Shown piece by piece: positions 1 to 36,293 of a DNA stretch of 64,000 nucleotides (within the stretch, counting starts at the first letter, position 1; each line of letters begins with the position of its first letter). Source of the DNA: Clostridia bacterium (lineage in GTDB: Bacteria; Bacillota; Clostridia; UBA1212; UBA1255); assembly GCA_017620915.1 (NCBI GenBank), contig JAFZSK010000014.1:2712-66711 (forward strand), read 5' to 3'. The notes under the pieces were generated by a model that was not told where the DNA came from, searched no databases, and was given only the letters and a program-made list of their open reading frames with translations. The translations under genes and the position numbers were made by a program.

Positions 1-347
1 GGCATCGAGAGCGCATGCTCGGTGGCTTCCTTGGCCTTCAGTACGTCGCCCTTGGCCTCTTCCCACGCTTTGCCGTTCTCGCGCGCCACGCTCATGGTCA
101 GCTCATCCATTTCTTCCACCAGCAGCCGGCGCACGTTGTGCAGCACCTGCATCCGTTTCAGCACCGGAGTGTCGCGCCAGGCGGGAAACGCGCGGTACGC
201 GGCTTCCACCGCTTTGAGCGCTTCGTCCTGCGTGCATTTTGGCGCGCGGGCAATGATCTCGCCCGTGCTGGGATTGTACACGTCGTAGTATTCCGCGGCG
301 GCGGACTCGACGTACCGGTTGTCAATAAACAAATTTAACTTTTCCAT
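1..347 (-). CDS. Aldehyde dehydrogenase family, CoA-acylating methylmalonate-semialdehyde dehydrogenase-like (N-terminal part only; the gene runs off the window start)
   Basis: Reverse-strand translation from the ATG at 347 gives MEKLNLFIDNRYVESAAAEYYDVYNPSTGEIIARAPKCTQDEALKAVEAAYRAFPAWRDTPVLKRMQVLHNV..., a typical MmsA/IolA-type ALDH N-terminus. It is not in the ORF track because it is truncated by the window edge. Confidence 0.7.
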   Translation of the reverse strand, partial: MEKLNLFIDNRYVESAAAEYYDVYNPSTGEIIARAPKCTQDEALKAVEAAYRAFPAWRDTPVLKRMQVLHNVRRLLVEEMDELTMSVARENGKAWEEAKGDVLKAKEATEHALSM

Positions 348-957
348 AATTATCGATCAGCTCCTTAAACGGTTTGTGAGAAAAGATTCGTTCTATAAGC
401 GCGGGGTCAATATCGCACAATATCGACTGAAAGTCCTTATGCGCGGACGCGCTGATGACCTTCAGTTTTTCGCGGCTCTGGGCCTGACTTTCGGCGCGGT
501 GGGGCGGATAACCGGCCCCCATCGGATCGGCAAACAGCTTCTCGAAAATGTATTTCAAATTGATATCCGCCGCCCAGCCGAAGCCTTTGTTGAGGGCGAG
601 GGAGATGCAGTTGCCGCCGTTGATCTGCGAAAACAGCCACGCGTCCAGCGAATCCAGTATCAGGCCGCAGAACACGTTGGGATACTGCATCGCGGAGATC
701 AGGAAGCCCTGGCCCGTGCCGCAGCCGCCGATCACGAGGTCTGCCGCGCCGGAATTCAGTGCGATCGCCGCCATCAGGCCGGTGTGGATGTACGTCAGCT
801 CGGGCTCATTGCCCGCGCCGGTCATGCCCACGTTGAACACTTCCGCCGGGACGTTCGCGAGCGCCTCCATGACTTTCGGGTTTTTGTCCTGTGAAGAAAC
901 TTCGTTGATTACTGCGATCCTCATAATTATCCTTTTCCACCCTTTCTTTCGATGCAT
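322..957 (-). CDS. RpiB/LacA/LacB-family sugar-phosphate isomerase
   Basis: 211-aa ORF containing a GGCGTGQG motif, and RIAVI...N.G, characteristic of the ribose-5-P isomerase B / galactose-6-P isomerase family. It is co-oriented with the transketolase genes. Confidence 0.7.
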   Translation of the reverse strand: MHRKKGWKRIIMRIAVINEVSSQDKNPKVMEALANVPAEVFNVGMTGAGNEPELTYIHTGLMAAIALNSGAADLVIGGCGTGQGFLISAMQYPNVFCGLILDSLDAWLFSQINGGNCISLALNKGFGWAADINLKYIFEKLFADPMGAGYPPHRAESQAQSREKLKVISASAHKDFQSILCDIDPALIERIFSHKPFKELIDNYGKVKFVY

Positions 958-1901
958 ATCTTAGCTTTGCGTGCGATCTCCGCCGCCGTCAGCTTGAAGC
1001 GCTCCTGCAGGAACGCCTGCGAGCCTACTTCGCCGAAAGATTCGAACACGCCTACGCGCTCCACCGGCACGGGATATTCTGCACACAGCAGTTCGCTCAC
1101 CGCGCTGCCCAGGCCGCCGGTGGCGTTGTGGTTCTCCGCGGTGACAATTGCGCCCGCGCGGCGCGCCGCGTCCAGCACGGCGTCGTTGTCCAGCGGCTTC
1201 AGCGTGTGCATATCGATCACGCCGGCGTCAATGCCCTCCGCCTTCAACAGCTCCCGCGCCTTCAGCGCTTCATATACCATAATACCGCAGGCGATGATGT
1301 ACACGTCTTTGCCCTCGTACAGCCGCATGGCTTTGCCGATCTTGAACTGCGTGCCGTCGCGGTACAGTTTCGTGGTCACGCGGCGGGAAGTGCGCAGGTA
1401 GATCACGCCGTACGTCTGCGCCATTTCATGCACCACGGACGCGTACATCGTGCTGTCCGCGGGCTCGATGACGGTGGTATGAGGGATCAGCCGCATCAGG
1501 CCCAGATCCTCGAAGGGCATGTGGGTGCCGCCGTTGGTGGCCGCCGTGACGCCCGGATCCGCGCCGATGATCTTAACGTTCAGATCCTGATACGCGCAGG
1601 ACAGGAACAGCTGGTCAAACACGCGCCGCGTGGCGAACACGCCGAACGCGTGGAAGAACGGCACCAGGCCCGTGGCGGACAATCCCGCGCTCATGCCTAC
1701 GGCCTGCGCTTCCATGATGCCGCAGTTGACCGCGCGCTCCGGGAAGGCGGCGTAGAACCGGCCCGTGCCTACCGAATGGCTGACGTCGGCGTCAACTACC
1801 ATAAGTTTATCGTTGACCTTCGCCTCCGCGATCAGCGCGTCGCAGTACGCCTGGCGCATCTCTACCGTATCCGGGGCGAAGCTATCCAGTAAAACACTCA
1901 T
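927..1901 (-). CDS. Transketolase, C-terminal (pyrimidine-binding) subunit
   Basis: 324-aa ORF. The MEAQAVGMSAGLSATGLVPFFHAFGVFATRR and TNGGTHMPFEDLGLMRLIP motifs match split-transketolase subunit B. Confidence 0.9.
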   Translation of the reverse strand: MSVLLDSFAPDTVEMRQAYCDALIAEAKVNDKLMVVDADVSHSVGTGRFYAAFPERAVNCGIMEAQAVGMSAGLSATGLVPFFHAFGVFATRRVFDQLFLSCAYQDLNVKIIGADPGVTAATNGGTHMPFEDLGLMRLIPHTTVIEPADSTMYASVVHEMAQTYGVIYLRTSRRVTTKLYRDGTQFKIGKAMRLYEGKDVYIIACGIMVYEALKARELLKAEGIDAGVIDMHTLKPLDNDAVLDAARRAGAIVTAENHNATGGLGSAVSELLCAEYPVPVERVGVFESFGEVGSQAFLQERFKLTAAEIARKAKICIERKGGKG

Positions 1902-2752
1902 ATTTCTGCCTCCAGTCTCCGGTCGATCTCCGCGATCGCGCGCTCCGCGTCCTCATGGGACACCGGCATGTAGTGGTTGAAACCGTCGATCTCAGCAAAG
2001 CAGCCGCCGTGGCCTTTTTCGGTGTCGCAGATGACCGCCGTGGGTCTGTCGCCGCTGCCCGCACTGATAAGCGCATTGTACAGCTGCGTCACGTCGTGAC
2101 CGTCAACGCGCCGGATCTCAAACCCGAACGCGGAGAGCTTGTTGCCCAAGTCTTCTTCGTTGCAGATATCTTTGACGTAGCCGTCCAGCTGGCGGCGGTT
2201 GTTGTCGATCAGCACTACCAGGTTGGTCAGCTTCCGGTGGGCGATGAACATGAACGCCTCCCAGTTCTGGCCTTCCTGCAGCTCGCCGTCGCCGAGGATC
2301 GCGTACACCTTGCCCGGGATGCCCTGCAGCCGTTTGCCCAGCGCCACGCCCGAGGCCAGGGACAATCCCTGCCCGAGCGATCCCGTACTGATGTCAACGC
2401 CCGTCGTTTTCAGACGGTCGCAATGGCTGGGCAGGTGCGTGCCGCCCTTGTTCAGCGTGAGCAGCTCCGCGGGGTCAAAATACCCTTTCAACGCCAGCGT
2501 CGCGTACAGCGCGGGACCGCAGTGCCCTTTGGACAACACCACCCAGTCCCGTTCTTCCCACTGCGGATCTGCGGGGTCAATATTCAGAATATCATTGTAC
2601 AGCACCGCCAGCATATCCGCGATGGACATGCTGCCGCCGATGTGCCCCGAGCCGGCCGCTTCCAGCGCGCGGATGCAGTTTTTGCGGATCTCCGCCGCGA
2701 AACGCTTAGTTTCCCGCGCGTCAAACGGTTTCTTCTGTGATGGCATGCTCAT
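1898..2752 (-). CDS. Transketolase, N-terminal (TPP-binding) subunit
   Basis: SMSIADMLAVLY...GHCGPALYATLALKGY...GDGELQEGQNWEAFMFIAHRKLTNLVVLIDNN. The start was chosen at MSMPSQKK (2752) rather than the longer track ORF. The gene overlaps the upstream TPP-enzyme stop. Confidence 0.9.
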   Translation of the reverse strand: MSMPSQKKPFDARETKRFAAEIRKNCIRALEAAGSGHIGGSMSIADMLAVLYNDILNIDPADPQWEERDWVVLSKGHCGPALYATLALKGYFDPAELLTLNKGGTHLPSHCDRLKTTGVDISTGSLGQGLSLASGVALGKRLQGIPGKVYAILGDGELQEGQNWEAFMFIAHRKLTNLVVLIDNNRRQLDGYVKDICNEEDLGNKLSAFGFEIRRVDGHDVTQLYNALISAGSGDRPTAVICDTEKGHGGCFAEIDGFNHYMPVSHEDAERAIAEIDRRLEAEI

Positions 2753-4508
2753 AAGCCTTTCTTCTTTCTTCCATGTAGCCCGGGATCGGCACATCCCACC
2801 AGCCGAACGCTTCGCCGCCGGACCAGGGGTGTACGGAAGATACGGGCACGTGGATCAGCGCGGGGCCGTTCTGCTTGAGGGCGTCGGTCAGCGCGGCTTT
2901 GAGGCTCGCGTTGTCCTCCGCGCGGTACGCTTTGATATGGAAGCCCTCGGCGATGGCGCGGAAGTCCGGCGTGTACATTTTGCCGTCCTGTTCGAAGTCG
3001 TTGCCGAAGGTGTTTTCTTTGCCCAGCACATCCACCTGGAGGTCTTTGATGGCCATCCAGCCGCGGTTGTCCGCCAGTATGATCACGATGGGGATATTGT
3101 ACTGCGCCGCCGTAGACAATTCCTGCATCACCATCATAAAGTCGCCGTCGCCCACGAGGGCAACCACCGGCCGCTCCGGCGCCGCCAGCTTCGCGCCCAG
3201 CGCCGCGGGGAACGCCCAGCCCATGGTGGAGAAGCCGCCTGTGGTCAGGTTGCAGCCGCGCTCTGCGTAGCAGTATTCCTGGAACAGCTGCGCCTGGGTG
3301 TTGCCCGAAGACGTAGCGATGATCGTATCTTTCGGCAGCGTATCCGCCAGCACGCCGATCATGCGAGAGATGGTCATCTCCTGCGTCTGCGCGTTCCATT
3401 TGTCATGCACGAATTTGAACCAGTCCGCGCGGCGCTGTTTGATCTCGTCCAGGTAAGCCTGGTTGACTGTGAAGTCCGGATCTTTTTCCAGCACGCGGGT
3501 GAGGAAGGCGTTGACATCGGAGAACACGCCTACATCCGCGGCGTAGTTCTTGCCGATCTCGTGGCCGTCCAGATCCACCTGGATCAGCTTGGTATCCGGG
3601 AAGTTGAACGCCACGCCCTTGCGGTACGAGCAGGTGGACTCGTCGGCAAACCGCGTGCCCAGCGCCAGTATCACGTCCGCGCTGCGGCTGATCTCGAGAC
3701 CGATCTTGGTGCCCTTGCTGCCCGTGTGGAAGCAGTACTGGTCGTGGGTCTCGCGCACGGTGCCTTTGGCCGCCAGCGTGGTGATGATCGCCGCACCCCA
3801 TTTTTCCGCCAGTTTTTCGATGAGCTCGCCGGATTTAGCGTGCAGCGCGCCGCCGCCCGCAAAGATCAGCGGCCGTTTGGCGGTCTTCATAAGTTCGATG
3901 GCTTTGTCCACGGCGCCTTCATCCGGGCCCGGGAGCGTCCAGACCGGCTGCTTGGCCAGCGGGATCGTTTTTTCGGTGGAATCCGCCTGCACGTCCATGG
4001 GCAATGTGATGGCGCACGGACCGCGCCGCCCGGACAACATCTCTTTGAACGCGTTGTTCATGATGCGGGGCAGCTGATCCGCGGTCTCGGCGCGCCAGCA
4101 GCGTTTTACCAGCGGCTCCAGCGCGCGCTGGATGTTGCTGTCGTGGTTCTTTTCCACTTCCTGCAGCACGCCCACGCCGTACATGTTTGTGTGGGTGTCT
4201 CCGCACAGCGCCAGGAACGGGGTGGAGTCAACGAACGCCGTTGCCAGCCCGATGGACAGGTTCAGCGTGCCGGGGCCAATGGAGGCAAACACTGCCAGCG
4301 GCTCGCCCTTGACGCGGTAGTAGCCGTCCGCGATAGCCGTTGCCGCCTGCTCGTGCTTGACCTGCATATACTTGATCTTGCCGTCTGCTTCCGCCTTGCG
4401 GATCGCGTCGAACAGTCCCAGCACGCCGTGGCCGGGGATGCCCAGAATGTACGGCACTTTTTCATTTATAAGTTTCTGTACGATAACTTCTCCGCCAGTC
4501 TTTTTCAT
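2721..4508 (-). CDS. Thiamine-pyrophosphate enzyme of the acetolactate-synthase-large-subunit superfamily (IolD-like or Xsc-like; specificity unresolved)
   Basis: 595 aa with three-domain TPP-enzyme architecture: N-terminal PYR domain HEQAA..ADGY, a central domain, and C-terminal GDGDFMM...ILADNRGW (the TPP-binding GDG...N motif). Confidence 0.8.
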   Translation of the reverse strand: MKKTGGEVIVQKLINEKVPYILGIPGHGVLGLFDAIRKAEADGKIKYMQVKHEQAATAIADGYYRVKGEPLAVFASIGPGTLNLSIGLATAFVDSTPFLALCGDTHTNMYGVGVLQEVEKNHDSNIQRALEPLVKRCWRAETADQLPRIMNNAFKEMLSGRRGPCAITLPMDVQADSTEKTIPLAKQPVWTLPGPDEGAVDKAIELMKTAKRPLIFAGGGALHAKSGELIEKLAEKWGAAIITTLAAKGTVRETHDQYCFHTGSKGTKIGLEISRSADVILALGTRFADESTCSYRKGVAFNFPDTKLIQVDLDGHEIGKNYAADVGVFSDVNAFLTRVLEKDPDFTVNQAYLDEIKQRRADWFKFVHDKWNAQTQEMTISRMIGVLADTLPKDTIIATSSGNTQAQLFQEYCYAERGCNLTTGGFSTMGWAFPAALGAKLAAPERPVVALVGDGDFMMVMQELSTAAQYNIPIVIILADNRGWMAIKDLQVDVLGKENTFGNDFEQDGKMYTPDFRAIAEGFHIKAYRAEDNASLKAALTDALKQNGPALIHVPVSSVHPWSGGEAFGWWDVPIPGYMEERRKAYEHAITEETV

Positions 4509-4557
4509 AGTAGCTCCTTAACTTAAAACTTAAAACTTATAACTTGCAACTTGCAAC

Positions 4558-5610
4558 TTATTTGAGTTCCAGGTACGGATACGTGTCATTGACCACGATC
4601 TCGACCTTCCGGTTCTCCTCGATGCTCTTGATGCTGGCCAGCACCATGGCGATGCTGTAAACGTTGTCCTTGCAGTCCGTGCCGGGCGTGCGGCCGGTGT
4701 CCAGCGCGTCGAACAGATCTTCCAGTGCGCCGTCATGCTGATCGCGCACGACCTCAGGCTTCTCGAACACGCCCTCTTTGTACCACTCGCCGTAGTGGAG
4801 GCCGTTGGTGTGCTCAAAGTATTGGTAGTGCACGTCGCCGAAGCCGTCCCAGACCACGGAGCCCTTGTCGCAGTCGATGCGCCATTCGTTGTCCCAGGAT
4901 GTCCAGCAGGCCTGCGCGCCGTTGTAGCCGCGGAACAGGTAGGTCACGCCGTTGTCGAACTCGAATACCGCGTCGCACGCGGAATCGCCGGTGTACATGG
5001 AGCCCTTCGGCCGGAAGCTGTGGTAGATGACCGACGTGGGCTTGCCGTCCACGAGGTAGCGCGCCATATCGAAGCTGTGGATGTTGTTGTCCTGCAGCTG
5101 CGGGTATTTGAGGTTGTTGCGGATGCTGCCCATATCGGCGTTGACGTAAATGCTGCCGCTCAGCAGGGTAGGTTCGCCCAGCAGGCCGGATTTGACCAGT
5201 TCGCGGATCTTGCCCACGCGGTCAATGAAGCGGCGGTTCTGCATCACGAAGTAGTGCTTGCCGGTCTCGTCCACGGTCTTGAGGATCTCGTTGACCTGGT
5301 CAACGGTGAACGCCATCGGCTTCTCGCCGAACACGTTGTAGCCCGCTTTCAGCGCAGTGGTGACGATCTCGCAGTGCGCGGTGACGAAGGTGAGGTCAAT
5401 GAGCAGATCGCCCTTTTCGTTCTCCAGCGCTTCTTTTTCGCTGGTGTAGATGCGGCAGTCGAGGCCGTAGCGGTCGCGGTATTTGATGGCGTTGTCAACG
5501 TTCCGGTCCACGAGCGCGAGTACTTTGCAGTCGTCGCGTTTGGTGATGTGATCCAGCCAGCGGAAGGTGATGGCGCCGCAGCCGACGATGATGATGTTGT
5601 GTTTGATCAT
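4558..5610 (-). CDS. Gfo/Idh/MocA-family NAD(P)-dependent oxidoreductase (inositol 2-dehydrogenase-like)
   Basis: MIKHNIIIVGCGAITFRWL Rossmann N-terminus. AAAGGAG RBS 7 nt upstream of the ATG at 5610. The longer track ORF start was rejected. Confidence 0.85.
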   Translation of the reverse strand: MIKHNIIIVGCGAITFRWLDHITKRDDCKVLALVDRNVDNAIKYRDRYGLDCRIYTSEKEALENEKGDLLIDLTFVTAHCEIVTTALKAGYNVFGEKPMAFTVDQVNEILKTVDETGKHYFVMQNRRFIDRVGKIRELVKSGLLGEPTLLSGSIYVNADMGSIRNNLKYPQLQDNNIHSFDMARYLVDGKPTSVIYHSFRPKGSMYTGDSACDAVFEFDNGVTYLFRGYNGAQACWTSWDNEWRIDCDKGSVVWDGFGDVHYQYFEHTNGLHYGEWYKEGVFEKPEVVRDQHDGALEDLFDALDTGRTPGTDCKDNVYSIAMVLASIKSIEENRKVEIVVNDTYPYLELK

Positions 5611-5664
5611 GGTGAGTTCTCCTTTATATATAGTTGTGTGTCGTTTCAATGATTTAAGTTCTGC

Positions 5665-6522
5665 TCACAGATACAGGTCCAGCAGTTTGCGCATGTCCGG
5701 CGCGGCGGGCGCGTGTTTGCCGCCGTACGTGGTCGCCCGGTAGCCCCAGGACTCGAATTCCACGCTGGCGCAGCCCTCGTAGCCGATCTCTTTGAGCGCG
5801 TCGAAAAAGGCTTTGAAGTTCACATTGCCCTCGCCGATGACGGGGAAGGTGAAGCGGCCGGGTTCCGCGATGCCCACGGCATCCTTCAGGTGCACGTGGA
5901 AGATCTTGTTTTTGCCCCAGCCCTTGACCAGGAACTCCATGTCGGTGTTGCCGTACAGTACTTCGTGGGACGGATCCAGGTTGACGCCCAGGAACGGCGA
6001 ATCGTAGCGGCTCTGCAGGTACTGATTGGTGTAGAAATCGTGAACGAGCATGCCCCAGACGTTCTCCACAGCCAGCTTCACGCCGCACTGTTCCGCCACG
6101 GGCAATATCTCGTCGAACGCTTCGAAGACCCACTTCCAGGCGGTGCCGGCGGATACGTGGCGACCAACGATCACCGGATCCGGATTCCACGGCACGGGGC
6201 CGGTGAACAGGTTCGCGGTGGTGACGCCGAGGTCGGCAACTTTCTTCAGATTGGTCTTGATGGTCTCTATCGAGGCGCGACGGGCGTCAACGTCGGGTAT
6301 GACCAGGTCGTGCTGCAGCAGCACTTCGGATATTTTGAGGCCGTTGTCCGCGAGCGCCTTTGTGAGCGCTTCGTTGTCCGCGGCGGTCTTGCCGGGCGCG
6401 AAAATGATGTCGTCGATCAATTCCACGCAGTCGTACCCCGATTCCCGCACGTAATGGCATAGTTTACCGTAGTCCCAGCCGAGCATTTCTCCGTTCGCCA
6501 AAAAGCCTAATTGGATCATGAT
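5665..6522 (-). CDS. Sugar phosphate isomerase/epimerase (xylose-isomerase-like TIM barrel; IolE/IolI-like)
   Basis: MIQLGFLANGEM...CVELID....VENVWGM...LDPSHE...FHVHLKD motifs typical of the AP-endonuclease-2 / xylose isomerase-like fold. AAAGGAGG RBS before the ATG at 6522. Confidence 0.85.
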   Translation of the reverse strand: MMIQLGFLANGEMLGWDYGKLCHYVRESGYDCVELIDDIIFAPGKTAADNEALTKALADNGLKISEVLLQHDLVIPDVDARRASIETIKTNLKKVADLGVTTANLFTGPVPWNPDPVIVGRHVSAGTAWKWVFEAFDEILPVAEQCGVKLAVENVWGMLVHDFYTNQYLQSRYDSPFLGVNLDPSHEVLYGNTDMEFLVKGWGKNKIFHVHLKDAVGIAEPGRFTFPVIGEGNVNFKAFFDALKEIGYEGCASVEFESWGYRATTYGGKHAPAAPDMRKLLDLYL

Positions 6523-6677
6523 GTTCCTCCTTTGCGCAGTTGAGATGCAGCGTTTTCGTTTCTTATTGTGCAACGCGTTTCTGCATCTATAATTATACCT
6601 TAAAACTGCTCAAAACGCAAGCGTTTGTCCTTTGCTTTGTACTCTGGGTTATCCTTGTCACCATTATAGAGCGTGAG

Positions 6678-6822
6678 TGTCAGCCACAATTCTATTTTTA
6701 GTTGATTGTGGCTGATGGATAGAAGGAGTGTGTCAGCCACAATCCGTCATTTTGCCAATTGTGGCTGATGGACAGAAGAAGTGCGTCAGCCACAATCCGT
6801 TGTTTTGCCAATTGTGGCTGAC
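6678..6822. repeat. Tandem palindromic repeat family A: 3 copies of about 53 bp, each TGTCAGCCACAAT-N14-ATTGTGGCTGA
   Basis: Read directly at 6678-6732, 6733-6785 and 6786-6822. The arms are perfect 11-bp inverted repeats. The array sits in the divergent intergenic region between the catabolic operon and the IclR gene. Confidence 0.9.
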
Positions 6823-6837
6823 AAATCATTCTGTTTT

Positions 6838-6978
6838 CCCAGAAATGCGGCGCCATCACCCGGTTCGCAGCCTTTGCCATCTTCCTCTTTTCCCGCCCTG
6901 CGAAGCCGAGTGAATGGCAAAGCATTTCGTTCCTCAGAAATGCGCCGCCATCACCCGGTTCGCAGCATTTGCCATTTG
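6838..6978. repeat. About 40-bp direct repeat x2 (AGAAATGCGGCGCCATCACCCGGTTCGCAGC(C/A)TTTGCCAT), spaced about 97 bp
   Basis: Copies at about 6838-6880 and 6936-6978 are nearly identical. They generate spurious small ORFs. Confidence 0.8.
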
Positions 6979-7027
6979 CCCTCCGGTATGTTATTATAGT
7001 CCCACTTCCCGAAGGGCGGTCATCAAC

Positions 7028-7789
7028 ATGGACAAACAAGTGCAGACGATCAATTCACTGGCGCGGGGGCTCGCGATCATTGACCTCATACACGAACATG
7101 GGCGGCTCGGCGTGACCGAGCTGGGCAAGCTGCTGGGCGTCAACAAAAGCAGCGCATACCGCCTCCTGAAAACGCTGGAGGAGCACGGCTACGTGGAGCA
7201 GATCGCCGAGAACGGCAAGTATACCCTGGGCCTTAAACTCTGCAAATTCCGGGAGCGCGTGCTGGACTCTTACGACATTCGGGCGGTGGCGCATCCATAT
7301 CTGGAAGAATTGACGCGGCTCACCGGCGAAGCGGCGGGACTCAGCGTGCGCAAAGGGGACGAAGTGTTCCTGATCGACTGCCTCAGCGCGCCGCATCATC
7401 TGGGCGTGATCCTGCAGATCGGCGACCGGGAGGAACTGCACTGCACCGCGCACGGGAAGGCAATGCTTTCTGCGCTCCCCGAAGACGAGCAGCGGCGGCT
7501 GCTGAAAAAAGAGAAATTGACCGCGCATACCGTGTATACCGTCACGGACCGGGAGCAGCTGCTGGCGGTGGCGAAGGCAGACAAGGCGCGGCGGTACGCC
7601 GTTGACAACGAAGAAACGACGCTCGGCATGCGCTGCGTCGCGGCCAATATATACGATTTCAGCGGCAACGTCGTCGCGGCCATCGGCATCTCCGGCCCCA
7701 CAGACCGGGTCACCGAAGAAAAGATCCCCGAGTATGCGGGGATCATAACGCGGATCGCGGAAACTATATCGCGGCGGCTGGGGTATTGA
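7028..7789 (+). CDS. IclR-family transcriptional regulator
   Basis: N-terminal HTH (INSLARGLAIIDLIHEHGRLGVTELGKLLGVNKSSAYRLLKTLEE) plus a C-terminal IclR effector domain. Divergent from the catabolic operon. The start was moved to MDKQVQ. Confidence 0.85.
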   Translation: MDKQVQTINSLARGLAIIDLIHEHGRLGVTELGKLLGVNKSSAYRLLKTLEEHGYVEQIAENGKYTLGLKLCKFRERVLDSYDIRAVAHPYLEELTRLTGEAAGLSVRKGDEVFLIDCLSAPHHLGVILQIGDREELHCTAHGKAMLSALPEDEQRRLLKKEKLTAHTVYTVTDREQLLAVAKADKARRYAVDNEETTLGMRCVAANIYDFSGNVVAAIGISGPTDRVTEEKIPEYAGIITRIAETISRRLGY

Positions 7790-7804
7790 CCCTGCGCCGT
7801 TTTT

Positions 7805-8812
7805 TTACAGCAGCGGGATGCCCGCGTTTTCGCAGGCGGCAACGGTTGCCTCGTCCCAGATACTCGACTGCACTTCGCCTATGTGGGCACAGCCCAGCAT
7901 CAGCATGCAGAGGCGGGATTGGCCGATGCCTCCGCCGATGGTGAGCGGGAGTTCCCCGGCCAGCAGCATCTTATGGAACGGCAGTTTGCGGCGGTCATCA
8001 CAGCCCGCGAGCGTGAGCTGGCGGTCCAGCGATTCGGGATCCACGCGGATGCCCATAGAGGAGATCTCCAGCGCGTTGTCCAGCACGGGATTCCAGAACA
8101 GGATATCGCAGTTGAGCGCCCAGTCGTCGTAGTCCGGCGCGCGGCCGTCGTGAGGAATGCCCGAGCGCAGGTTGCCTCCGATCTGCATGATGCACGCGGT
8201 GTGGTGGCGGCGCAGGAATTCGCGCTCGCGCTGCTTCGGCGTCAGTTCCGGATACATGTCCTCCAGTTCCTGCGAAGTGATGAACGTGACGTCGCGCTCC
8301 AGTTCGACGGTGAGCTGCGGAAAACGCACGTGCAGGCTGTCGTTGGTGTCGGCGATAGCGCCCACCACGGCGCGGACAATAAGTTTCAGATAGTCGAGAT
8401 CACGGTTCGCGGCGGTGATGATCTTTTCCCAGTCCCACTGGTCAACGTAAATGGAGTGGATGTTGTCCGGTTCCTCGTCCCGCCGGATGGCGTTCATGTC
8501 GGTGTACAGTCCGTTGCCCACGCTGAAATGATACCGCTTCAGTGCGAGCCGCTTCCATTTGGCCAGCGAATGCACGACCTGGGCGTCAACGCCGATCGCC
8601 GGCACGTCGAAATCCACCGGCCGCTCGTAGCCGTTGAGGTTGTCGTTGAGGCCGGAACTTTCGGTGACGAACAACGGCGCCGATACGCGCTTGAGGTTCA
8701 GCGCTTTGGCAAATTCGCGCTGGAATGTATCTTTTATGAACGCGATCGCGCGCTGCGTGTCGTATTCGTCGAGGATCGGCTTATAGCCGGCGGGGATGAT
8801 GAGTCTGTTCAT
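7805..8812 (-). CDS. asnA: Aspartate--ammonia ligase (asparagine synthetase A)
   Basis: 335 aa with ...YVDQWDWEKII... and full-length similarity to class-II aaRS-like AsnA. GAAAGGA RBS. Confidence 0.9.
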   Translation of the reverse strand: MNRLIIPAGYKPILDEYDTQRAIAFIKDTFQREFAKALNLKRVSAPLFVTESSGLNDNLNGYERPVDFDVPAIGVDAQVVHSLAKWKRLALKRYHFSVGNGLYTDMNAIRRDEEPDNIHSIYVDQWDWEKIITAANRDLDYLKLIVRAVVGAIADTNDSLHVRFPQLTVELERDVTFITSQELEDMYPELTPKQREREFLRRHHTACIMQIGGNLRSGIPHDGRAPDYDDWALNCDILFWNPVLDNALEISSMGIRVDPESLDRQLTLAGCDDRRKLPFHKMLLAGELPLTIGGGIGQSRLCMLMLGCAHIGEVQSSIWDEATVAACENAGIPLL

Positions 8813-8904
8813 ACGCGTATTCCTTTCGGCAGGGCGGAGGGCAATCGGAGCGCCGCGCGGTACCGGGCAATATTATAACAAACGGGAAGGGAAATGGCAA
8901 AAGC

Positions 8905-10689
8905 CTATTCGACCACAGTCACTTTGACCGTAAAGCTGTGGGTGCCGGCGATCGTGACGTTGACCTCCGCCGTGCCCGGAGCGTGGGGGTAGATCAGGCC
9001 GCGCTGATTGAGCGTGATCACGGACGGGTCGGACACCTCGTATGTGACGGGGAAGTTGCGGGCAGAGATCATGTTGCCCTCGTTGTACGCCTCGCCCCAG
9101 CTGTGGTCGGAAAAGCGCACCAGCCCGCGGATCTGCTGCCGGTGGACGTCCGTCAGCGACAATGTATACTCCGCGATCACCGGCGTAAACTCCACCACCG
9201 TTCGGGGCGAGGAGCCCTGAAACTCGGAGAACGTCTCCCGGATGTACACTTTGAACTCGTTCTCGAAATTGCCGTAGCGTACGGTCACCCGGGTCTCACC
9301 GGTCTTGCCTTTGGTGTAGACGCGGTTGCCCTTTATCGAGATCAGCGAGCTGTCGTAGCCGGAGTATTTGATCTTTTTCGTGTCGTTCAGCGCATGGGCG
9401 CCCAGCATCGGATCCAGCCACACGAAAGAGACCGTGCCGTAATCCTCGTTTTTCTGGATCTCCACGATCTTGACGTTGGGGGCAATGCCGATCATCGGCG
9501 GATCGCTCTCCCGCTCCTGCAGGTAGCCTTCTTTCAGCACGCCGCGGGCGTTGGGGTCAATTGCCTCCGGCTCGCCGGTATACAGCTCCAGCTTCACAGG
9601 CTGGAAGGCGGTGGCCCATTTGCCCCAGTTGCCCTCGGCGCCGTCGCTGAACGCGTACCCCACGAACACCGGGTCCTTCAGCTGGATGTGGCCATCCGGC
9701 CGCCGTGCCACGCCCATATTGTGACAATACTGATACAGTCCCGTGCGCAGCAGCCCGGTCTGGCGGAACGTCAATCCGTCCTCCGACTCCAGTATAGCGA
9801 TCCCGCTCTGTGCCGAGAACCGGTGCTGGGTACAGAAACCGATGAACTTGCCCGCATCCTCTAAATACGCCACGTCGCAGGAGTCCTGGCTGTTGATCTT
9901 TTCGTATGCCTGCCCCCGGAACTCCAGCCGCGCGGGCCAGTCCTCCGCCGTGTCCGACGTGGACACATACACGAAATTGCCCTCGGGGCAGATCCAGGTG
10001 TAGTACATGTATAAAACGTCGTCCACGATCACAAAACTGGGCTCGCCGGCGCCGTAACTCAGGTCATATTCGTCGTAATAGATGATCGGGGCCGGATCGC
10101 CGCCCCAGCCGCTGCCGTTCCACTTTTCGTACGGGCCGTCCGCCGATTTGGAGCGGGCAACGAACACGTTATTGTTGACTCCGCCGTTCGTGCTGACAAT
10201 GGTGGAAGTGTAGCCTAAATAATAATACCCGCCGAAATACACCGCACCGGGATCGCAGCAGGAGAATTTGTCCATGGAATCCGCGCAGGGGACCAGTGTG
10301 ACTTTTTCGCCGCTGAAATTGACGCCGTCAACAGAATGCTTCACCGACAGCCAGTCCCACTCGCCGCCGTACCCGTTGGTGGAGAACCAGGCATCGCACG
10401 TGCCGTCCGCATAATACATGATCGTGGGGCCGTAGCGGTATCCGGCGGCGTCCACCGGCGGCGCGTATATAATGTTGGGCTCTCCGGCGGCGGTGACTCG
10501 CACATGGGTGTCCGGATCGGGGTCAATGGCCGGCAGCGTGTCCGTAAACAACGCCGGCGGCTTCGGTCCTTTGCGGCAGCCGGAAAACAGCAGCGGAAGA
10601 CACAAAGCAATGCACAGCACGAGGCAAAAAGCCCTGCGCAGTGCATTGCGGGTCAATATGCTTTTTTGCTTTTCAGCGTGCTTTCCCAT
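8905..10689 (-). CDS. Secreted lipoprotein of unknown function (possible glycoside-hydrolase-like beta-propeller) with C-terminal bacterial Ig-like domain
   Basis: Signal peptide with lipobox LLFSGC. Long Trp/Tyr/Gly-rich central region. C-terminal GTAEVNVTIAGTHSFTVKVTVV Big_2-like strand pattern. Function not assignable from sequence alone. Confidence 0.5.
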   Translation of the reverse strand: MGKHAEKQKSILTRNALRRAFCLVLCIALCLPLLFSGCRKGPKPPALFTDTLPAIDPDPDTHVRVTAAGEPNIIYAPPVDAAGYRYGPTIMYYADGTCDAWFSTNGYGGEWDWLSVKHSVDGVNFSGEKVTLVPCADSMDKFSCCDPGAVYFGGYYYLGYTSTIVSTNGGVNNNVFVARSKSADGPYEKWNGSGWGGDPAPIIYYDEYDLSYGAGEPSFVIVDDVLYMYYTWICPEGNFVYVSTSDTAEDWPARLEFRGQAYEKINSQDSCDVAYLEDAGKFIGFCTQHRFSAQSGIAILESEDGLTFRQTGLLRTGLYQYCHNMGVARRPDGHIQLKDPVFVGYAFSDGAEGNWGKWATAFQPVKLELYTGEPEAIDPNARGVLKEGYLQERESDPPMIGIAPNVKIVEIQKNEDYGTVSFVWLDPMLGAHALNDTKKIKYSGYDSSLISIKGNRVYTKGKTGETRVTVRYGNFENEFKVYIRETFSEFQGSSPRTVVEFTPVIAEYTLSLTDVHRQQIRGLVRFSDHSWGEAYNEGNMISARNFPVTYEVSDPSVITLNQRGLIYPHAPGTAEVNVTIAGTHSFTVKVTVVE

Positions 10690-11050
10690 ATTTTTCCACG
10701 TGTTTTTTGATGGCGTCGAAGGTCTTGTCGCTCAGATAGTGTTCGATGCGGCAGGCGTCTTCCGCGGCGGTCGCTTCGTCAACGCCCAGATCGGTGAACA
10801 GCCGGCTGAGCAGCTGATGGCGCTCGTAAATGTGTTTTGCCCGGTTTTCGCCCGCTTCGGTGAGCGAAATGAATCCCTGCGCGTCGGTGACCACGAGCCC
10901 GTCCTTTTTCAGCAGCCCCAGCGCACGGCTGACGGAGGGCTTCGAGTAGCCCATGTACGTACCGACGTCAATGCTCCGCACCGCCGTTGACTTCTGTGAC
11001 AACACATATATGGTTTCGAGGTACATTTCTCCGGATTCGCGTAAAGTCAT
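10673..11050 (-). CDS. DtxR/MntR-family metal-dependent transcriptional regulator (short form, no SH3-like domain)
   Basis: MTLRESGEMYLETIYVLSQ...SVSRALGLLKKDGLV HTH and dimerisation region typical of MntR/IdeR. Divergent from the feo operon. Confidence 0.85.
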   Translation of the reverse strand: MTLRESGEMYLETIYVLSQKSTAVRSIDVGTYMGYSKPSVSRALGLLKKDGLVVTDAQGFISLTEAGENRAKHIYERHQLLSRLFTDLGVDEATAAEDACRIEHYLSDKTFDAIKKHVEKYGKAR

Positions 11051-11203
11051 ACTGCTGCCTCCTCCGTCTGCCTGCGGTCAATGCTCGCCCGGCCGCGGTT
11101 TGCGGCCACGTTCCGGCTGTGATTGCCCGGCTGTCAACCGAAATTATAGCGTAAACAGCGGCAAGTTGCAAATGGCGGCCGGCGCTTCGCCTCCTTTTCT
11201 GTT

Positions 11204-11520
11204 TTCGTCAGCCACAAAGTGCAAAAGTCCCGAGTTGTGGCTGACACCTCCTTGTGATTCGTCAGCCACAAAGTGCAAAAACCCCGGGTTGTGGCTGACA
11301 CCTTCCGCTGATTCGTCAGCCACAAAGTGCAAAAGCCCCGGGTTGTGGCTGACACCTCCTTGTGATCCGTCAGCCACAAAGTGCAAAAACCCTGGGTTGT
11401 GGCTGACACCTTCTTGTGATTCGTCAGCCACAAAGCGCAATATTCCCGGGGTGTGGCTGACACCTCCTTGTGATTCGTCAGCCACAAAGTGCAAAAGTCC
11501 CGGGTTGTGGCTGACACAAT
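11204..11520. repeat. Tandem palindromic repeat family A-prime: 6 copies of about 61 bp (TCGTCAGCCACAAAGTGCAAAAGTCCCGGGTTGTGGCTGACACCTCCTTGTGAT)
   Basis: The arms GTCAGCCACAA / TTGTGGCTGAC are the same as in family A at 6678 but with a different 17-bp spacer. The six copies are more than 90% identical. They explain the repeat-derived ORFs 11134..11517 and 11144..11743. Confidence 0.9.
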
Positions 11521-11760
11521 TCTTCGCGGAGGCCGAAAAGATGAAAAGAAAGGGGTTTCGGCCTACGTCCATCCTTGTTGCGGAGGCCGAAAAGGTGGAA
11601 AGAAATGGTTTTCGGCCTACGCTCCGCCTCTTCGCGGAGGCCGAAAAGATGGAAAGTAAAGGGTTTCGGCCTACGCTCCACCTCTTCGCGGAGGCCGAAA
11701 AGATGGAAAATAAAGGGTTTCGGCCTCCATCATCGGCCTCCAAACATTTTTCAAAAAAGC
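11521..11760. repeat. Tandem palindromic repeat family B: 4 copies of about 60 bp (CGCGGAGGCCGAAAAGATGGAAAG.AAAGGGTTTCGGCCTACGCTCC)
   Basis: Each unit has GAGGCCGAAA ... TTTCGGCCTC inverted arms. The same family occurs at 32380-32690. Confidence 0.9.
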
Positions 11761-11762
11761 TA

Positions 11763-11791
11763 TTGACAAGTTAGCGGCGGCTAATTATAAT
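11763..11791 (+). promoter_or_regulatory. Consensus sigma-A promoter TTGACA-N17-TATAAT upstream of feoA
   Basis: TTGACA at 11763-11768, 17-nt spacer, TATAAT at 11786-11791. The first DtxR-like box overlaps the spacer. Confidence 0.6.
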
Positions 11792-11884
11792 ATACGACGG
11801 TTAGCGACAGCTAACCTATTATTACGATGAATGGTTAGCATAAACTAACCAATAATTACGACCAAAAGTTAGCAAAAGCTAACT
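11769..11884. promoter_or_regulatory. Array of four 18-bp DtxR/IdeR-like palindromic operators (GGTTAGC-N4-GCTAACC), phased about 34 bp apart
   Basis: Boxes at 11769-11786 (AGTTAGCGGCGGCTAATT), 11799-11816 (GGTTAGCGACAGCTAACC), 11833-11850 (GGTTAGCATAAACTAACC) and 11867-11884 (AGTTAGCAAAAGCTAACT). The half-sites resemble the DtxR consensus TTAGGTTAGCCTAACCTAA but have a longer centre. Confidence 0.65.
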
Positions 11885-11918
11885 CAATCGACACATATCA
11901 CGGGGAGGGCAGGAAAAC

Positions 11919-12131
11919 ATGATACCGCTCTGTTACGCAGAAACAGGACAGCCGCAGATCATAAAGAAGATCGGCGGCAATCCGGAGACCAGACAGCACC
12001 TGGAGAACCTCGGGTTCAACATCGGGGGAGAGGTCGTTGTCATCAGCACCCTGGGCGAGAACATGATCATCAAAGTCAAGGAATGCCGTGTTGCCGTCAG
12101 CGACGAGCTGGCGCGGAAAATAATGGTCTGA
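11919..12131 (+). CDS. feoA: Ferrous iron transport protein A (FeoA domain)
   Basis: 70 aa, SH3-like FeoA (..TGQPQIIKKIGGNPETRQHLENLGFNIGGEVVVIS..). GGGGAGGG RBS. Confidence 0.85.
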   Translation: MIPLCYAETGQPQIIKKIGGNPETRQHLENLGFNIGGEVVVISTLGENMIIKVKECRVAVSDELARKIMV

Positions 12132-12153
12132 CAATATAAAGGAGGAATATCAC

Positions 12154-12384
12154 TTGAAAACACTCAGAGACGTAAAAATCGGCGAGACCGCCACAGTTGT
12201 GAAACTTCACGGAGAAGGCGCGGTAAAGCGGCGCATCATGGACATGGGCATCACCCGGAGAACTAAAGTATACGTGCGCAAAGTTGCCCCGCTCGGCGAC
12301 CCCATCGAAGTCACTGTCCGGAATTACGAGCTCTCAATCCGCAAAGCGGACGCGGAAATGGTCGAGGTCGAAGAAACCGAGTGA
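12154..12384 (+). CDS. feoA: Second FeoA-domain protein (TTG start)
   Basis: 76 aa, LRDVKIGETATVVKLHGEGAVKRRIMDMGI.. FeoA fold. AAAGGAGG RBS 7 nt before the TTG. Confidence 0.8.
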   Translation: MKTLRDVKIGETATVVKLHGEGAVKRRIMDMGITRRTKVYVRKVAPLGDPIEVTVRNYELSIRKADAEMVEVEETE

Positions 12385-12411
12385 GCAGATAAGCAGAAAG
12401 GAAGCATTTTT

Positions 12412-35009: not shown

Positions 35010-36293
35010 TCAGAACAAGTCGCTGATCGGATTAGGTTCGCGCAGCCACTGCTTGCGCACGTTCTCGAACGTTTCATCCGGAATATACACATCGCCGTGG
35101 GAGGTCTTGGGCAGTAACTGATCGCCGGCGACCTCCTTCGTGCAGCACGCGTTGTCGAACCGGAATTTGTCGCGGTCCGGCAGGTTGCGGAAGTCGGGGA
35201 TGTCCATCGGAGCGTTGCCCGCCAGCACCGAGCGCCAGGCCATTATGCCGCAGAGGCCCATGTTGGCCGCAGTGTAAACGTCAATGCACCAGTCCCCGTC
35301 CGGCCGCCCGAGGATCTTCTCGATGAAGCAGTGGGTGGTGTAGAAATCGCTGCCGCCGTGGCCCTGGGATCTGACGGCAATACTGCTGCCGATATCGTTG
35401 GACGGATCGTAATTGTCCCACGTGCCCTGGCAGACTTTATTGCCCTCGCGGTATATATTGAACTCCGCGCTGCCGTAGCGGCGTGACTGCATCATGCCTT
35501 TGGTGCCGTAGACCTGGTAGTTGACGCTGCCGGGCTCCATTTTGAGGCCGCCGTGGATGCTCTTGACGATGGCGCCGTTCTCCAGCGTGATCATTTCGAT
35601 GCCGGCGCGTTCGGGTATGCCTACGCGCAGCTGCTTTTCTTCAATGTTGAGGTTGGTCTCGAAGCCCACGACTTTGACCGCGCGCAGCCCGGAGATCGTG
35701 ATCAGCGGCCCGCACGAGTGGGTGCAGTAGAAGTTCGCGAACAGCCGGTTGCGCCAGTGATCCCGCTCGCCGTACGTTATGTCGGGCCAGATGGAGGTGC
35801 AGTCGTGGATGTACTCGCCCTCGGCGTACTGGATCTCGCCGATGTCGCCCGCGCGGTACCGCTTCCACATCTCGAACGGCGCCTTCATGTAGCAGTAATT
35901 CTCGGCGTATGAGTAGATCAGGCCGGTGCGCTCCACGGTCTCGATGAGCTTCACCAGCTGCGCGGGCGTCTCCGCGGGCAGCACCTCAGACATCACGTGC
36001 TTTCCCGCCTCCAGGCACTTCACTGCGTAGATCGCGTGCTCATGCGCGTAGTTGGCGAGGACAACGGCGTCCATATCGTGCTTTATGAATTCGTCAAACG
36101 AGGTGTAGACGTCAATTTGCGTGCCGGCTTCCTGCGCGGCGCGCTGACAATTTTCCAGCAGCGGTTCGTATTTGTCGCAGACGGCAACCAGCTCCGCGTC
36201 CGGGTGATTCAGCAGCTGATGGACCATCACCGACCCGCGTGCGCCGCCGAAAACACCGATCTTGACTTTCTTTGTGTTGTCACTGTTAGCCAT
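35010..36293 (-). CDS. Gfo/Idh/MocA-family oxidoreductase, long form (GH109-like NAD-dependent glycosidase architecture)
   Basis: VKIGVFGGARGS...LVAVCD Rossmann N-terminus, a dimerisation domain, and a C-terminal extension to 427 aa as in GH109 members. AAGGAGTGGG RBS. Confidence 0.7.
   Translation of the reverse strand: MANSDNTKKVKIGVFGGARGSVMVHQLLNHPDAELVAVCDKYEPLLENCQRAAQEAGTQIDVYTSFDEFIKHDMDAVVLANYAHEHAIYAVKCLEAGKHVMSEVLPAETPAQLVKLIETVERTGLIYSYAENYCYMKAPFEMWKRYRAGDIGEIQYAEGEYIHDCTSIWPDITYGERDHWRNRLFANFYCTHSCGPLITISGLRAVKVVGFETNLNIEEKQLRVGIPERAGIEMITLENGAIVKSIHGGLKMEPGSVNYQVYGTKGMMQSRRYGSAEFNIYREGNKVCQGTWDNYDPSNDIGSSIAVRSQGHGGSDFYTTHCFIEKILGRPDGDWCIDVYTAANMGLCGIMAWRSVLAGNAPMDIPDFRNLPDRDKFRFDNACCTKEVAGDQLLPKTSHGDVYIPDETFENVRKQWLREPNPISDLF

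Follow-up and report, generated by a model that had tools for sequence, protein, structure and literature searches.

We analysed a 64,000-nucleotide stretch of DNA from a Clostridia bacterium (assembly GCA_017620915.1, contig JAFZSK010000014.1, positions 2,712 to 66,711), hereafter the window, which starts within a cluster of seven minus-strand genes and one divergent regulator gene. The first gene of the cluster encodes a xylose-isomerase-like TIM-barrel protein (284 aa; 5665-6519; PF01261, E 2.5e-40). It is followed by a Gfo/Idh/MocA NAD-dependent dehydrogenase, here called Gfo-A (350 aa; 4558-5610; PF01408, PF22725, PF02894), a thiamine diphosphate (ThDP) enzyme (595 aa; 2721-4508; PF02776/PF00205/PF02775), and a transketolase split into an N-terminal subunit (284 aa; 1898-2752; PF00456, E 1.2e-46) and a C-terminal subunit with the pyrimidine-binding and C-terminal domains (324 aa; 927-1901; PF02779, PF02780). 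The last two genes encode a PF02502 ketol-isomerase of RpiB fold, assigned to the DhuI type (200 aa; 322-924; NF006753/PRK09273), and a CoA-acylating methylmalonate-semialdehyde dehydrogenase (MMSDH), of which the window start leaves only the 5' part (1-347). The complete 501-aa MMSDH, to which TIGR01722 was applied, and the gene call for the transketolase N subunit were taken from a longer copy of the same contig (L001). On the plus strand, a divergent gene encodes an IclR-family regulator (253 aa; 7028-7789; PF09339 and PF01614), and the region between it and the TIM-barrel gene (6520-7027, without strand) forms the divergent control region. Open reading frame listing and translation, Pfam and NCBIfam scans, and independent gene calls on the identical public contig (L001, L062) were concordant for this gene set. 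From the TIM-barrel gene to the MMSDH gene, the spacings were 54, 49, -32, -4, 2 and -26 bp, so that the first 32 bp of the transketolase N gene lie within the ThDP enzyme gene and the two subunit genes overlap by 4 bp. No minus-strand terminator-like site was found inside the cluster. Because of these tight spacings and the lack of an internal terminator-like site, the seven genes appear to be one transcription unit, and the cluster reads as a single operon. The TIM-barrel gene has its ATG at 6519 with AGGAGG just before it, and a promoter-like site lies at 6969-6997, ahead of iclR. An earlier note on this DNA had described one IclR-linked operon combining iol-like families with a split transketolase and an RpiB-family isomerase; all eight genes were recovered, the seven of the operon with tight spacings, and the cluster is not split into unrelated transcription units.

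The earlier note had also remarked that the canonical iolB, iolC and iolJ genes are absent. L001 extends about 2.9 kb beyond the window start and holds, past the MMSDH gene, an AraC regulator, then, in opposite orientation, a 4'-phosphopantetheinyl transferase gene (ACPS, PF01648), and lastly an incomplete gene where the contig stops. No iolB, iolC or iolJ, kinase, aldolase, cupin isomerase, transporter or sulfite/sulfonate exporter was found in this extension, where a sulfite exporter or sugar transporter had been looked for. IolB, IolC and IolJ domains were absent from the Pfam lists of L001 and L062, and tblastn with IolC and IolJ fragments against the window and L001 gave nothing below E = 0.29. 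With the canonical genes missing and a transketolase and an isomerase in the operon, the proposal of a non-canonical route was borne out. Full-text searches found no account in the literature of this gene combination, and the literature on BbmA/CsmA, the nearest solved structure, was uninformative.

The isomerase scored 218.6 bits against the DhuI-family model NF006753/PRK09273 (cut-off 137) and was 47% identical over 189 residues (E 8e-50) to the streptococcal DhuI gbs1892 (PDB 4u8e), a 4-deoxy-hexosulose-uronate (DHU) isomerase. The isomerases linked to the ThDP enzyme form a subfamily of their own, with 49-71% identity among themselves and 36-47% to canonical DhuI. The protein labelled RpiB in the earlier note has the PF02502 fold and belongs to the 200-aa PRK09273/DhuI family, that of enzymes acting on an unphosphorylated uronate; the assignment does not imply that its substrate is that of DhuI. 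DhuI is a non-homologous, isofunctional counterpart of the KduI/IolB family, in which KduI and IolB are grouped together (PMC12838403). Since the DhuI family handles an unphosphorylated uronate and is a counterpart of KduI/IolB, a DhuI-type isomerase is a plausible non-homologous replacement for IolB. The transketolase N subunit aligned to positions 13-283 of model NF004559. The full-length dehydrogenase scored 518.6 bits against TIGR01722 (cut-off 448.5) and contains the motifs CEAKNH and GERCMA, which identifies it, at the level of sequence, as a true CoA-acylating methylmalonate/malonate-semialdehyde dehydrogenase of the IolA type.

The matches of the front-end enzymes to inositol models were more distant. 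The TIM barrel gave 43.6 bits against the IolE equivalog TIGR04379 (cut-off 290), the L-ribulose-5-phosphate 3-epimerase model scored equally or better (45 bits), UxuA matched weakly (28.6 bits), and no close relative was found among solved structures. The TIM barrel could be either an entry isomerase/epimerase or an IolE-like dehydratase. A hydroxypyruvate isomerase assignment was dropped, as no such model was among the NCBIfam matches at E<=1e-5. Gfo-A gave 90.2 bits against the IolG equivalog TIGR04380 (cut-off 355), which was still its best NCBIfam match, and IolG was likewise the top NCBIfam match of the second Gfo type, Gfo-B, described below. The best solved relatives of Gfo-A were inositol dehydrogenases (3ezy, 1.5e-15; 3mz0), with E values ranging from 1e-15 to 1e-11. 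Next to its closest annotated homologues (34% identity) there was in every case a TIM-barrel gene together with a sugar ABC transporter, and once ThuA. This constant pairing makes Gfo and TIM barrel a recurrent two-gene module, predicted therefore to act by an 'oxidise, then eliminate or isomerise' logic. Among the inositol labels of the earlier note, the IolA-like one stood, whereas IolE and IolG appear to hold at fold or family level only and IolD was not supported as an equivalog.

The ThDP enzyme is labelled only generically in public sources, for example as 'acetolactate synthase', and it scored below every NCBIfam cut-off: 347.4 bits against 538 for acetolactate synthase (ALS), 324.8 against 715 for IolD (TIGR04377) and 262.7 against 620 for Xsc. 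A protein search of annotated plasmids returned, as the closest annotated relatives, unannotated 'thiamine pyrophosphate-binding proteins' that were 38-41% identical; true IolD, IlvB/IlvI, Gcl and Xsc were only 25-32% identical (28-30% for three annotated IolD, 25% for two annotated Xsc). We built a neighbour-joining tree with 22 reference sequences from annotated plasmid records. The window enzyme and its relatives from two other versions of the cluster (types B and C, below) clustered with the unannotated clade (bootstrap 78%), the combined group was sister to IolD (bootstrap 75%), and ALS/Gcl and Xsc/pyruvate oxidase (SpxB) were placed elsewhere. Three alignment features occurred only in the window clade, the unannotated clade and IolD: GHG at the position of PGGA in ALS and of IGSA in Xsc, an inserted loop LQExE and a C-terminal motif WW[DN]. 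Together, tree and motifs indicate that the ThDP enzyme belongs to an uncharacterised clade, sister to IolD, and is neither an acetolactate synthase nor Xsc. We propose that it cleaves a C-C bond of a 1,2-dicarbonyl. The enzyme does not group with bona fide acetolactate synthases, a placement that would have spoken against the reading of the earlier note.

An ALS identity was rejected on the score below cut-off, the position off the ALS clade, the lack of PGGA and the lack of ilvN. The same evidence, with the IolD-type motifs, bears on the idea that there is no dedicated pathway here, only ALS and a housekeeping pentose-phosphate transketolase beside unrelated sugar genes, or else a phosphorylated erythritol or tetrose route of the EryC/EryI type. 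The naming of the enzyme in the sources and the ALS model, nominally its highest hidden Markov model score (347 bits), speak for the former, and erythritol catabolism does make use of enzymes with RpiB folds and TIM barrels. Against this, the genes overlap or nearly abut, their order is kept across many MAG loci with ThDP enzymes down to 54% identical to that of the window, and the cluster lacks a kinase or erythritol-phosphate dehydrogenase. We give this explanation almost no credence and regard it as largely refuted.

An Xsc identity was rejected on 25% identity, tree clade and context. This result bears on a variant sulfo-transketolase (sulfo-TK) pathway, in which the transketolase would be SqwGH, the isomerase SqwI, the MMSDH-like protein an acylating sulfoacetaldehyde dehydrogenase, and the ThDP enzyme Xsc-like and releasing sulfite. 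The oxidative sulfo-TK variant does have a transketolase, a PF02502 isomerase and an acylating aldehyde dehydrogenase as its core, rumen Clostridia commonly possess sulfo-TK, and sulfoacetaldehyde is, by our reasoning, isosteric with malonate semialdehyde. The first gene of some sister loci is also faintly like the sulfoquinovose (SQ) isomerase SftI. But the ThDP enzyme lies in another clade than Xsc, and no SftI/SqvD, YihQ/SqgA, SqwF, SqwKL, sulfonate/sulfite exporter or SQ transporter was found in the operon, its flanks or the Pfam-annotated parts of the window. Sulfo-TK would have no role for the Gfo and IolD-like enzymes that make up the conserved core, and some versions of the cluster lack any transketolase. 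The sulfo-TK reading, which the earlier note had paired with an Xsc-like enzyme, was thus not supported, and we consider it highly improbable.

The gene surroundings of the ThDP enzyme's relatives were examined at plasmid loci of the uncharacterised clade in Paracoccus, Priestia, Rhizobium etli, Haloarcula, Haloterrigena and Arthrobacter (L045-L050). The Haloterrigena relative (38% identical) adjoins an iolM-annotated gene (scyllo-inosose 3-dehydrogenase), two Gfo genes and one gene each for a TIM barrel, MMSDH and IclR, and the Haloarcula relative has similar surroundings. The Arthrobacter relative adjoins a Gfo gene. The relatives in Rhizobiaceae, Paracoccus and Priestia adjoin genes for HisD-like and GMC oxidoreductases and sugar (ABC) transporters, those in Rhizobiaceae and Priestia also ThuA, and aspartase-like genes recur beside the clade as well. 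The Gfo and TIM-barrel proteins encoded beside the ThDP enzyme in haloarchaea and Arthrobacter share at most about 25% identity with those of the window and are not their orthologues. On the basis of these surroundings, the ThDP family seems to act on oxidised cyclitols or sugars, and the plasmid loci look like further undescribed sugar or cyclitol routes.

The cluster is conserved in numerous uncultured Clostridia from rumen and gut. Relatives of its ThDP enzyme at 63% identity or above number in the hundreds in metagenome-assembled genomes (MAGs) of Clostridia and Oscillospiraceae, and a scan of species-representative genomes gave 37 loci, all in MAGs and mainly from rumen samples. The gene order of the window recurs in about 25 MAG loci at 69-92% protein identity, and rearranged versions occur at 54-67%; the arrangement recurs far beyond chance. 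Architectures were defined by ORF clustering of neighbouring genes and by precomputed Pfam contexts. Type A, that of the window, has the order TIM barrel or c11, Gfo-A, ThDP enzyme, transketolase N, transketolase C, isomerase and MMSDH, often with a divergent IclR gene. The c11 protein (L021, 329-1684; L023, 7404-8768; L044, 4561-5916) is unrelated to the TIM barrel, has 451 aa and no Pfam domain, and is encoded in its stead by the first gene of some operons that are orthologous in all other respects; its C-terminal half gave a faint resemblance to SftI (NF048012; 41.3 bits, cut-off 700). Type B has the order ThDP enzyme, Gfo-B, transketolase N, transketolase C, isomerase, IclR and a transporter of the glycoside-pentoside-hexuronide (GPH) family, some loci also with MMSDH; Gfo-B has about 400 aa and is only about 24% identical to Gfo-A. 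Type C lacks the transketolase and combines the ThDP enzyme, Gfo-B and isomerase with an Opp-type ABC transporter, a GH29 fucosidase, a flavoprotein, DUF4838, a sulfatase and a PIG-L deacetylase. In the 23 loci with enough flanking DNA, the isomerase gene was adjacent to the ThDP enzyme gene in every case, the transketolase was linked in 18 and MMSDH in 15. In a further locus version (L042), a KduD-like SDR reductase follows the isomerase in place of the transketolase. No kinase was found in any version of the cluster itself; kinases do occur in glycerol modules next to it in L039 and L063.

Some loci carry further genes beside this core. In type C loci (L029-L032, L035, L038), the fucosidase is a GH29 alpha-L-fucosidase, the C-terminus of the sulfatase is SGSH-like, and a further gene, judged by its sequence, encodes a GNAT-like acetyltransferase; taken together, the type C genes suggest that a sulfated, fucosylated, N-acetylated glycan is broken down. 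Two independent type B loci are directly followed by glycerol modules: GldA with DhaK/DhaL and then a CUT2 ABC transporter in L039 (6682-9585), and a GlpA-like trio with an FGGY kinase in L063 (17855-21791). These modules may be there by chance, or may point to a glycerol-linked substrate or to dihydroxyacetone as a product.

We infer the substrate and every reaction of the route from which genes are present, how they are arranged in the operon, where they fall in their families and how consistently they are linked. The operon looks like an undescribed, kinase-free breakdown of a plant cyclitol or sugar acid. Our leading but tentative reading, which we hold at slightly less than even confidence, is an IclR-controlled catabolic route for an unphosphorylated, carboxylate-bearing carbohydrate with an iol-like front end and transketolase cleavage. 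The Gfo dehydrogenase would oxidise the substrate to a 1,2-dicarbonyl, aided by the TIM barrel, whose step would be an elimination or an isomerisation. The IolD-sister ThDP enzyme would then cut a C-C bond to give an aldehydo-acid, a (deoxy)uronate: IolD-type cleavage of a 1,2-dicarbonyl would produce aldehyde and carboxylate together, that is, a uronate-like acid of the kind that the DhuI family uses. The DhuI-type isomerase would turn this aldose acid into a 2-ketose acid, which is the job of IolB, KduI or UxaC in known routes. That the ThDP enzyme and the isomerase catalyse consecutive steps is suggested by their adjacency in all testable loci. The 2-ketose acid would be a natural transketolase donor, and the split transketolase would move its C1-C2 ketol unit to glyceraldehyde-3-phosphate, giving xylulose-5-phosphate with neither ATP nor a kinase. 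The leftover short carboxy-aldehyde would finally be oxidised by the CoA-acylating MMSDH. Such a route would parallel sulfo-TK, a carboxylate taking the place of the sulfonate. In L042, the reductase would act on the ketose acid instead of the transketolase, and this replacement by a KduD-like reductase fits a product of the 5-keto-aldonate type.

The four protein families of iol type, the position of the ThDP clade as sister to IolD and the gene surroundings in haloarchaea lead us to favour an inositol-type cyclitol (such as myo-inositol, D-chiro-inositol/pinitol or a deoxy-inositol) as the leading substrate candidate, with a uronate second. In the inositol case, the DhuI-like isomerase would stand in for IolB, and the transketolase for IolC and IolJ. 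Transketolase donors need a D-threo (3S,4R) configuration, and by our stereochemical reasoning this is the one found in 5-dehydro-2-deoxy-D-gluconate. Several observations weigh against an inositol route. Transketolase cleavage of 5-dehydro-2-deoxygluconate from myo-inositol would leave a C4 acid (3-hydroxy-4-oxobutanoate) and not malonate semialdehyde, so that the MMSDH step would be unexplained for this substrate. The TIM barrel, Gfo-A and the ThDP enzyme all miss the cut-offs of the IolE, IolG and IolD equivalogs, and the ThDP tree is only neighbour-joining with moderate support. Sister operons have c11 in place of the TIM barrel or neither, and L037 and L040 keep MMSDH without a TIM barrel; as the TIM barrel is replaceable or missing while MMSDH stays, an obligatory IolE-type dehydration is disfavoured. 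A subgroup represented by L024 lacks an adjacent Gfo gene. The ThDP-linked isomerases stand apart from proven DhuI as a distinct subfamily. No inositol transporter was linked to the cluster; the transporters linked in other versions were a GPH symporter, a CUT2 ABC or an Opp-type ABC transporter.

The second candidate is a uronate substrate, which we rate as possible but clearly less probable than a cyclitol. If the substrate were DHU, the DhuI-like isomerase would convert it to 2,5-diketo-3-deoxygluconate, the ThDP enzyme would remove C1 as CO2, Gfo would oxidise the new aldehyde to an acid, the transketolase would split the resulting C5 ketose acid into a C2 unit and malonate semialdehyde, and MMSDH would turn the latter into acetyl-CoA. 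On chemical reasoning, this is the only scheme that would give each enzyme a reaction of a known class and MMSDH its known substrate. With a saturated hexuronate, oxidation at C2 would give a keto-aldehyde, ThDP cleavage would free formate and leave a penturonate, and isomerase and transketolase would lead to tartronate semialdehyde. The isomerase's sole characterised relative acts on DHU, L042 has the canonical pair of isomerase and KduD-like reductase, and the type B transporter is of the GPH family. Carbohydrate esterases (SGNH/GDSL and SASA) and an arabinofuranosidase-like gene often flank type A loci, and the versions without a TIM barrel or without Gfo would fit a ready-made keto-acid substrate. 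However, the motifs of the ThDP enzyme are common to the diketone hydrolase IolD and not to 2-oxo-acid decarboxylases, none of the loci had an unsaturated-uronyl hydrolase (GH88, GH105) or a polysaccharide lyase beside it, and the ThDP-linked isomerases form a clade apart from proven DhuI. The DHU scheme would also need Gfo as a putative aldehyde/hemiacetal dehydrogenase acting on 2-deoxy-pentos-4-ulose.

The pairing of Gfo-A homologues with TIM-barrel genes, sugar ABC transporters and once ThuA raises a further candidate, another neutral sugar or glycoside entering through a 'keto-sugar' module. Here, a ring carbon would be oxidised, elimination would give a diketone, and ThDP cleavage would leave an acid fragment for the isomerase, transketolase and MMSDH. 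The GMC oxidoreductases, ThuA, HisD-like dehydrogenases and sugar ABC transporters beside the Rhizobiaceae and Priestia relatives of the ThDP enzyme are consistent with such a substrate, as are the fucosidase, sulfatase, PIG-L deacetylase and DUF4838 protein of type C loci. Yet no nameable substrate accounts for all seven enzymes, and the DhuI-family isomerase and MMSDH both indicate carboxylated intermediates. We regard a neutral sugar as unlikely.

Returning to the cyclitol-led reading, the operon may represent the first 'carboxy-transketolase' pathway, free of ATP and kinase and operating in strictly anaerobic rumen and gut Clostridia. In this pathway, a hitherto unrecognised ThDP family, sister to IolD, would turn an oxidised cyclitol or keto-sugar into a uronate-like acid by opening it, and a dedicated transketolase, helped by a DhuI-type isomerase, would cut this acid to C2 units. 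Members of the same family in Rhizobiaceae, Bacillales, Actinomycetota and haloarchaea, now routinely misannotated as acetolactate synthase, would point to sugar or cyclitol routes that have yet to be described. We put this broader proposal forward provisionally, at a confidence just short of even. If the mechanism is true, the transketolase logic found for sulfoquinovose would reach carboxylated sugars, anaerobes would ferment a plant cyclitol or uronate without the ATP cost of a kinase, and there would be a new reaction family among ThDP enzymes now called 'acetolactate synthase' or 'thiamine pyrophosphate-binding protein'. As the cluster is widespread in rumen MAGs, it may carry a real share of forage carbon, such as inositols, pinitol and pectin-derived acids.

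Linkage of an IclR gene to the cluster is seen in loci of both types, A and B. BhcR and KdgR were the best NCBIfam matches of the IclR regulator, both below cut-off. A pathway of glyoxylate carboligase and hydroxypyruvate isomerase, suggested by the similarity of the regulator to BhcR/AllR, was dropped, since the ThDP enzyme keeps the catalytic Glu that Gcl lacks. Within the control region, a 53-bp unit that contains the palindrome TCAGCCACAAT-N14-ATTGTGGCTGA is repeated three times in tandem at 6678-6830. A second, longer array of the same repeat family lies at 11204-11517, 4.5 kb from the intergenic array, and is followed at 11521-11726 by a different, 54-bp array. The palindrome with 11-bp arms (TCAGCCACAAT...ATTGTGGCTGA or a one-mismatch variant) in 53-54-bp units gave 18 matches against 0.99 expected. 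The three intergenic palindromes were considered as an IclR operator and rejected: since the same repeat family forms the other array, the palindrome is not an operon-specific operator. The long 'ORFs' at 10953-11774 (plus strand) and 11144-11743 (minus strand) are products of these repeats and not genes. Rfam gave no riboswitch or other RNA element within 1-12500.

The rest of the window had no functional link to the operon. The gene next after iclR is asnA (7805-8812). It is followed by a minus-strand gene (8905-10689) for a 594-aa protein, secreted or lipid-anchored in appearance, whose sole Pfam signal is a faint hyaluronate-lyase N-terminal beta domain, and directly beyond it lie a DtxR-type regulator and the Feo iron-transport genes feoA/feoB. 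The remaining genes include GH3, GH2 and GH109-like genes and large F5/8-type-C proteins. The GH109-like protein (35010-36293, minus strand) has a Gfo domain and a GH109 C-terminal domain, and three very large proteins of 1023, 1258 and 818 aa are encoded on the plus strand at 42252-45323, 45606-49382 and 49499-51955, two of them with F5/8-type-C domains. These four are probably carbohydrate-binding or carbohydrate-degrading surface proteins.

Compared with known systems, the operon has four protein families in common with iolABCDEGJ of Bacillus subtilis: Gfo/Idh/MocA, CoA-acylating MMSDH, the ThDP enzymes of the ALS superfamily and the xylose-isomerase-like TIM barrels. The two would have a common logic of oxidising, eliminating, cleaving a diketone and isomerising, and the ThDP clade is sister to IolD with IolD-only motifs. 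In contrast to the B. subtilis genes, the window has a DhuI-type isomerase for the IolB cupin and a split transketolase for the IolC kinase and IolJ aldolase, and its enzymes widely miss the IolG, IolE and IolD cut-offs. Its transketolase would yield C2 and C4 products, whereas the iol pathway yields C3 and C3.

The sulfo-TK pathways process anionic, unphosphorylated sugars with a transketolase and a PF02502 isomerase and end in a reductase or an acylating dehydrogenase (PMC9594981, PMC11659671, PMC12890257). Like the operon, sulfo-TK (SftI/SqvD, SqwGH, SqwI, SqwF or SqwD/KL) has a dedicated split transketolase and a PF02502 isomerase, is kinase-free and occurs in anaerobes, including rumen Clostridia. 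The operon differs in having no SQ isomerase, sulfoquinovosidase, exporter or SqwKL, and in an extra, invariant Gfo and IolD-like front end; its anionic handle is probably a carboxylate and not a sulfonate. No window protein matched NF048012, the model of SftI/SqvD, and no iron-dependent alcohol dehydrogenase, CoA ligase, exporter, sulfoquinovosidase or transporter was found in the operon or the Pfam-annotated parts of the window (about 2.4-25 and 32-55 kb). In the comparison with SqwGH/SqwI, the split transketolase and the PF02502 protein were present, and among the characterised proteins compared the closest relative of the isomerase was DhuI.

The DHU route (dhuI-dhuD/kduD, kdgK, kdgA) has in common with the window an isomerase of the DhuI family, and L042 pairs its isomerase with a KduD-like reductase. 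The window operon differs from it in lacking an adjacent SDR-family DK-II reductase, 2-keto-3-deoxygluconate (KDG) kinase and 2-keto-3-deoxy-6-phosphogluconate (KDPG) aldolase. An inositol variant of Thermotoga maritima (IolG, IolM, IolN, IolO) reportedly feeds hexuronate catabolism. It is said to lack IolB, IolC and IolJ as well and to open the ring to a keto-uronate-type acid, and an iolM-annotated gene lies beside the haloarchaeal ThDP relatives. Its ring opening reportedly relies on a non-ThDP hydrolase, unlike that proposed here, with no transketolase or DhuI-type isomerase. Two-subunit transketolases with unusual ketol donors are found in other catabolic clusters, namely AptAB (apulose-4-phosphate transketolase) and DesAB (steroid-17,20-desmolase). 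Their donors are a phosphorylated branched pentulose and cortisol, respectively, and they are not known to be associated with an IolD-like enzyme, a DhuI-like isomerase or MMSDH. The proposed joining of iol-type ring opening to transketolase-type cleavage would be a new combination of known kinds, and sequence comparison supports the cluster well as a conserved unit.

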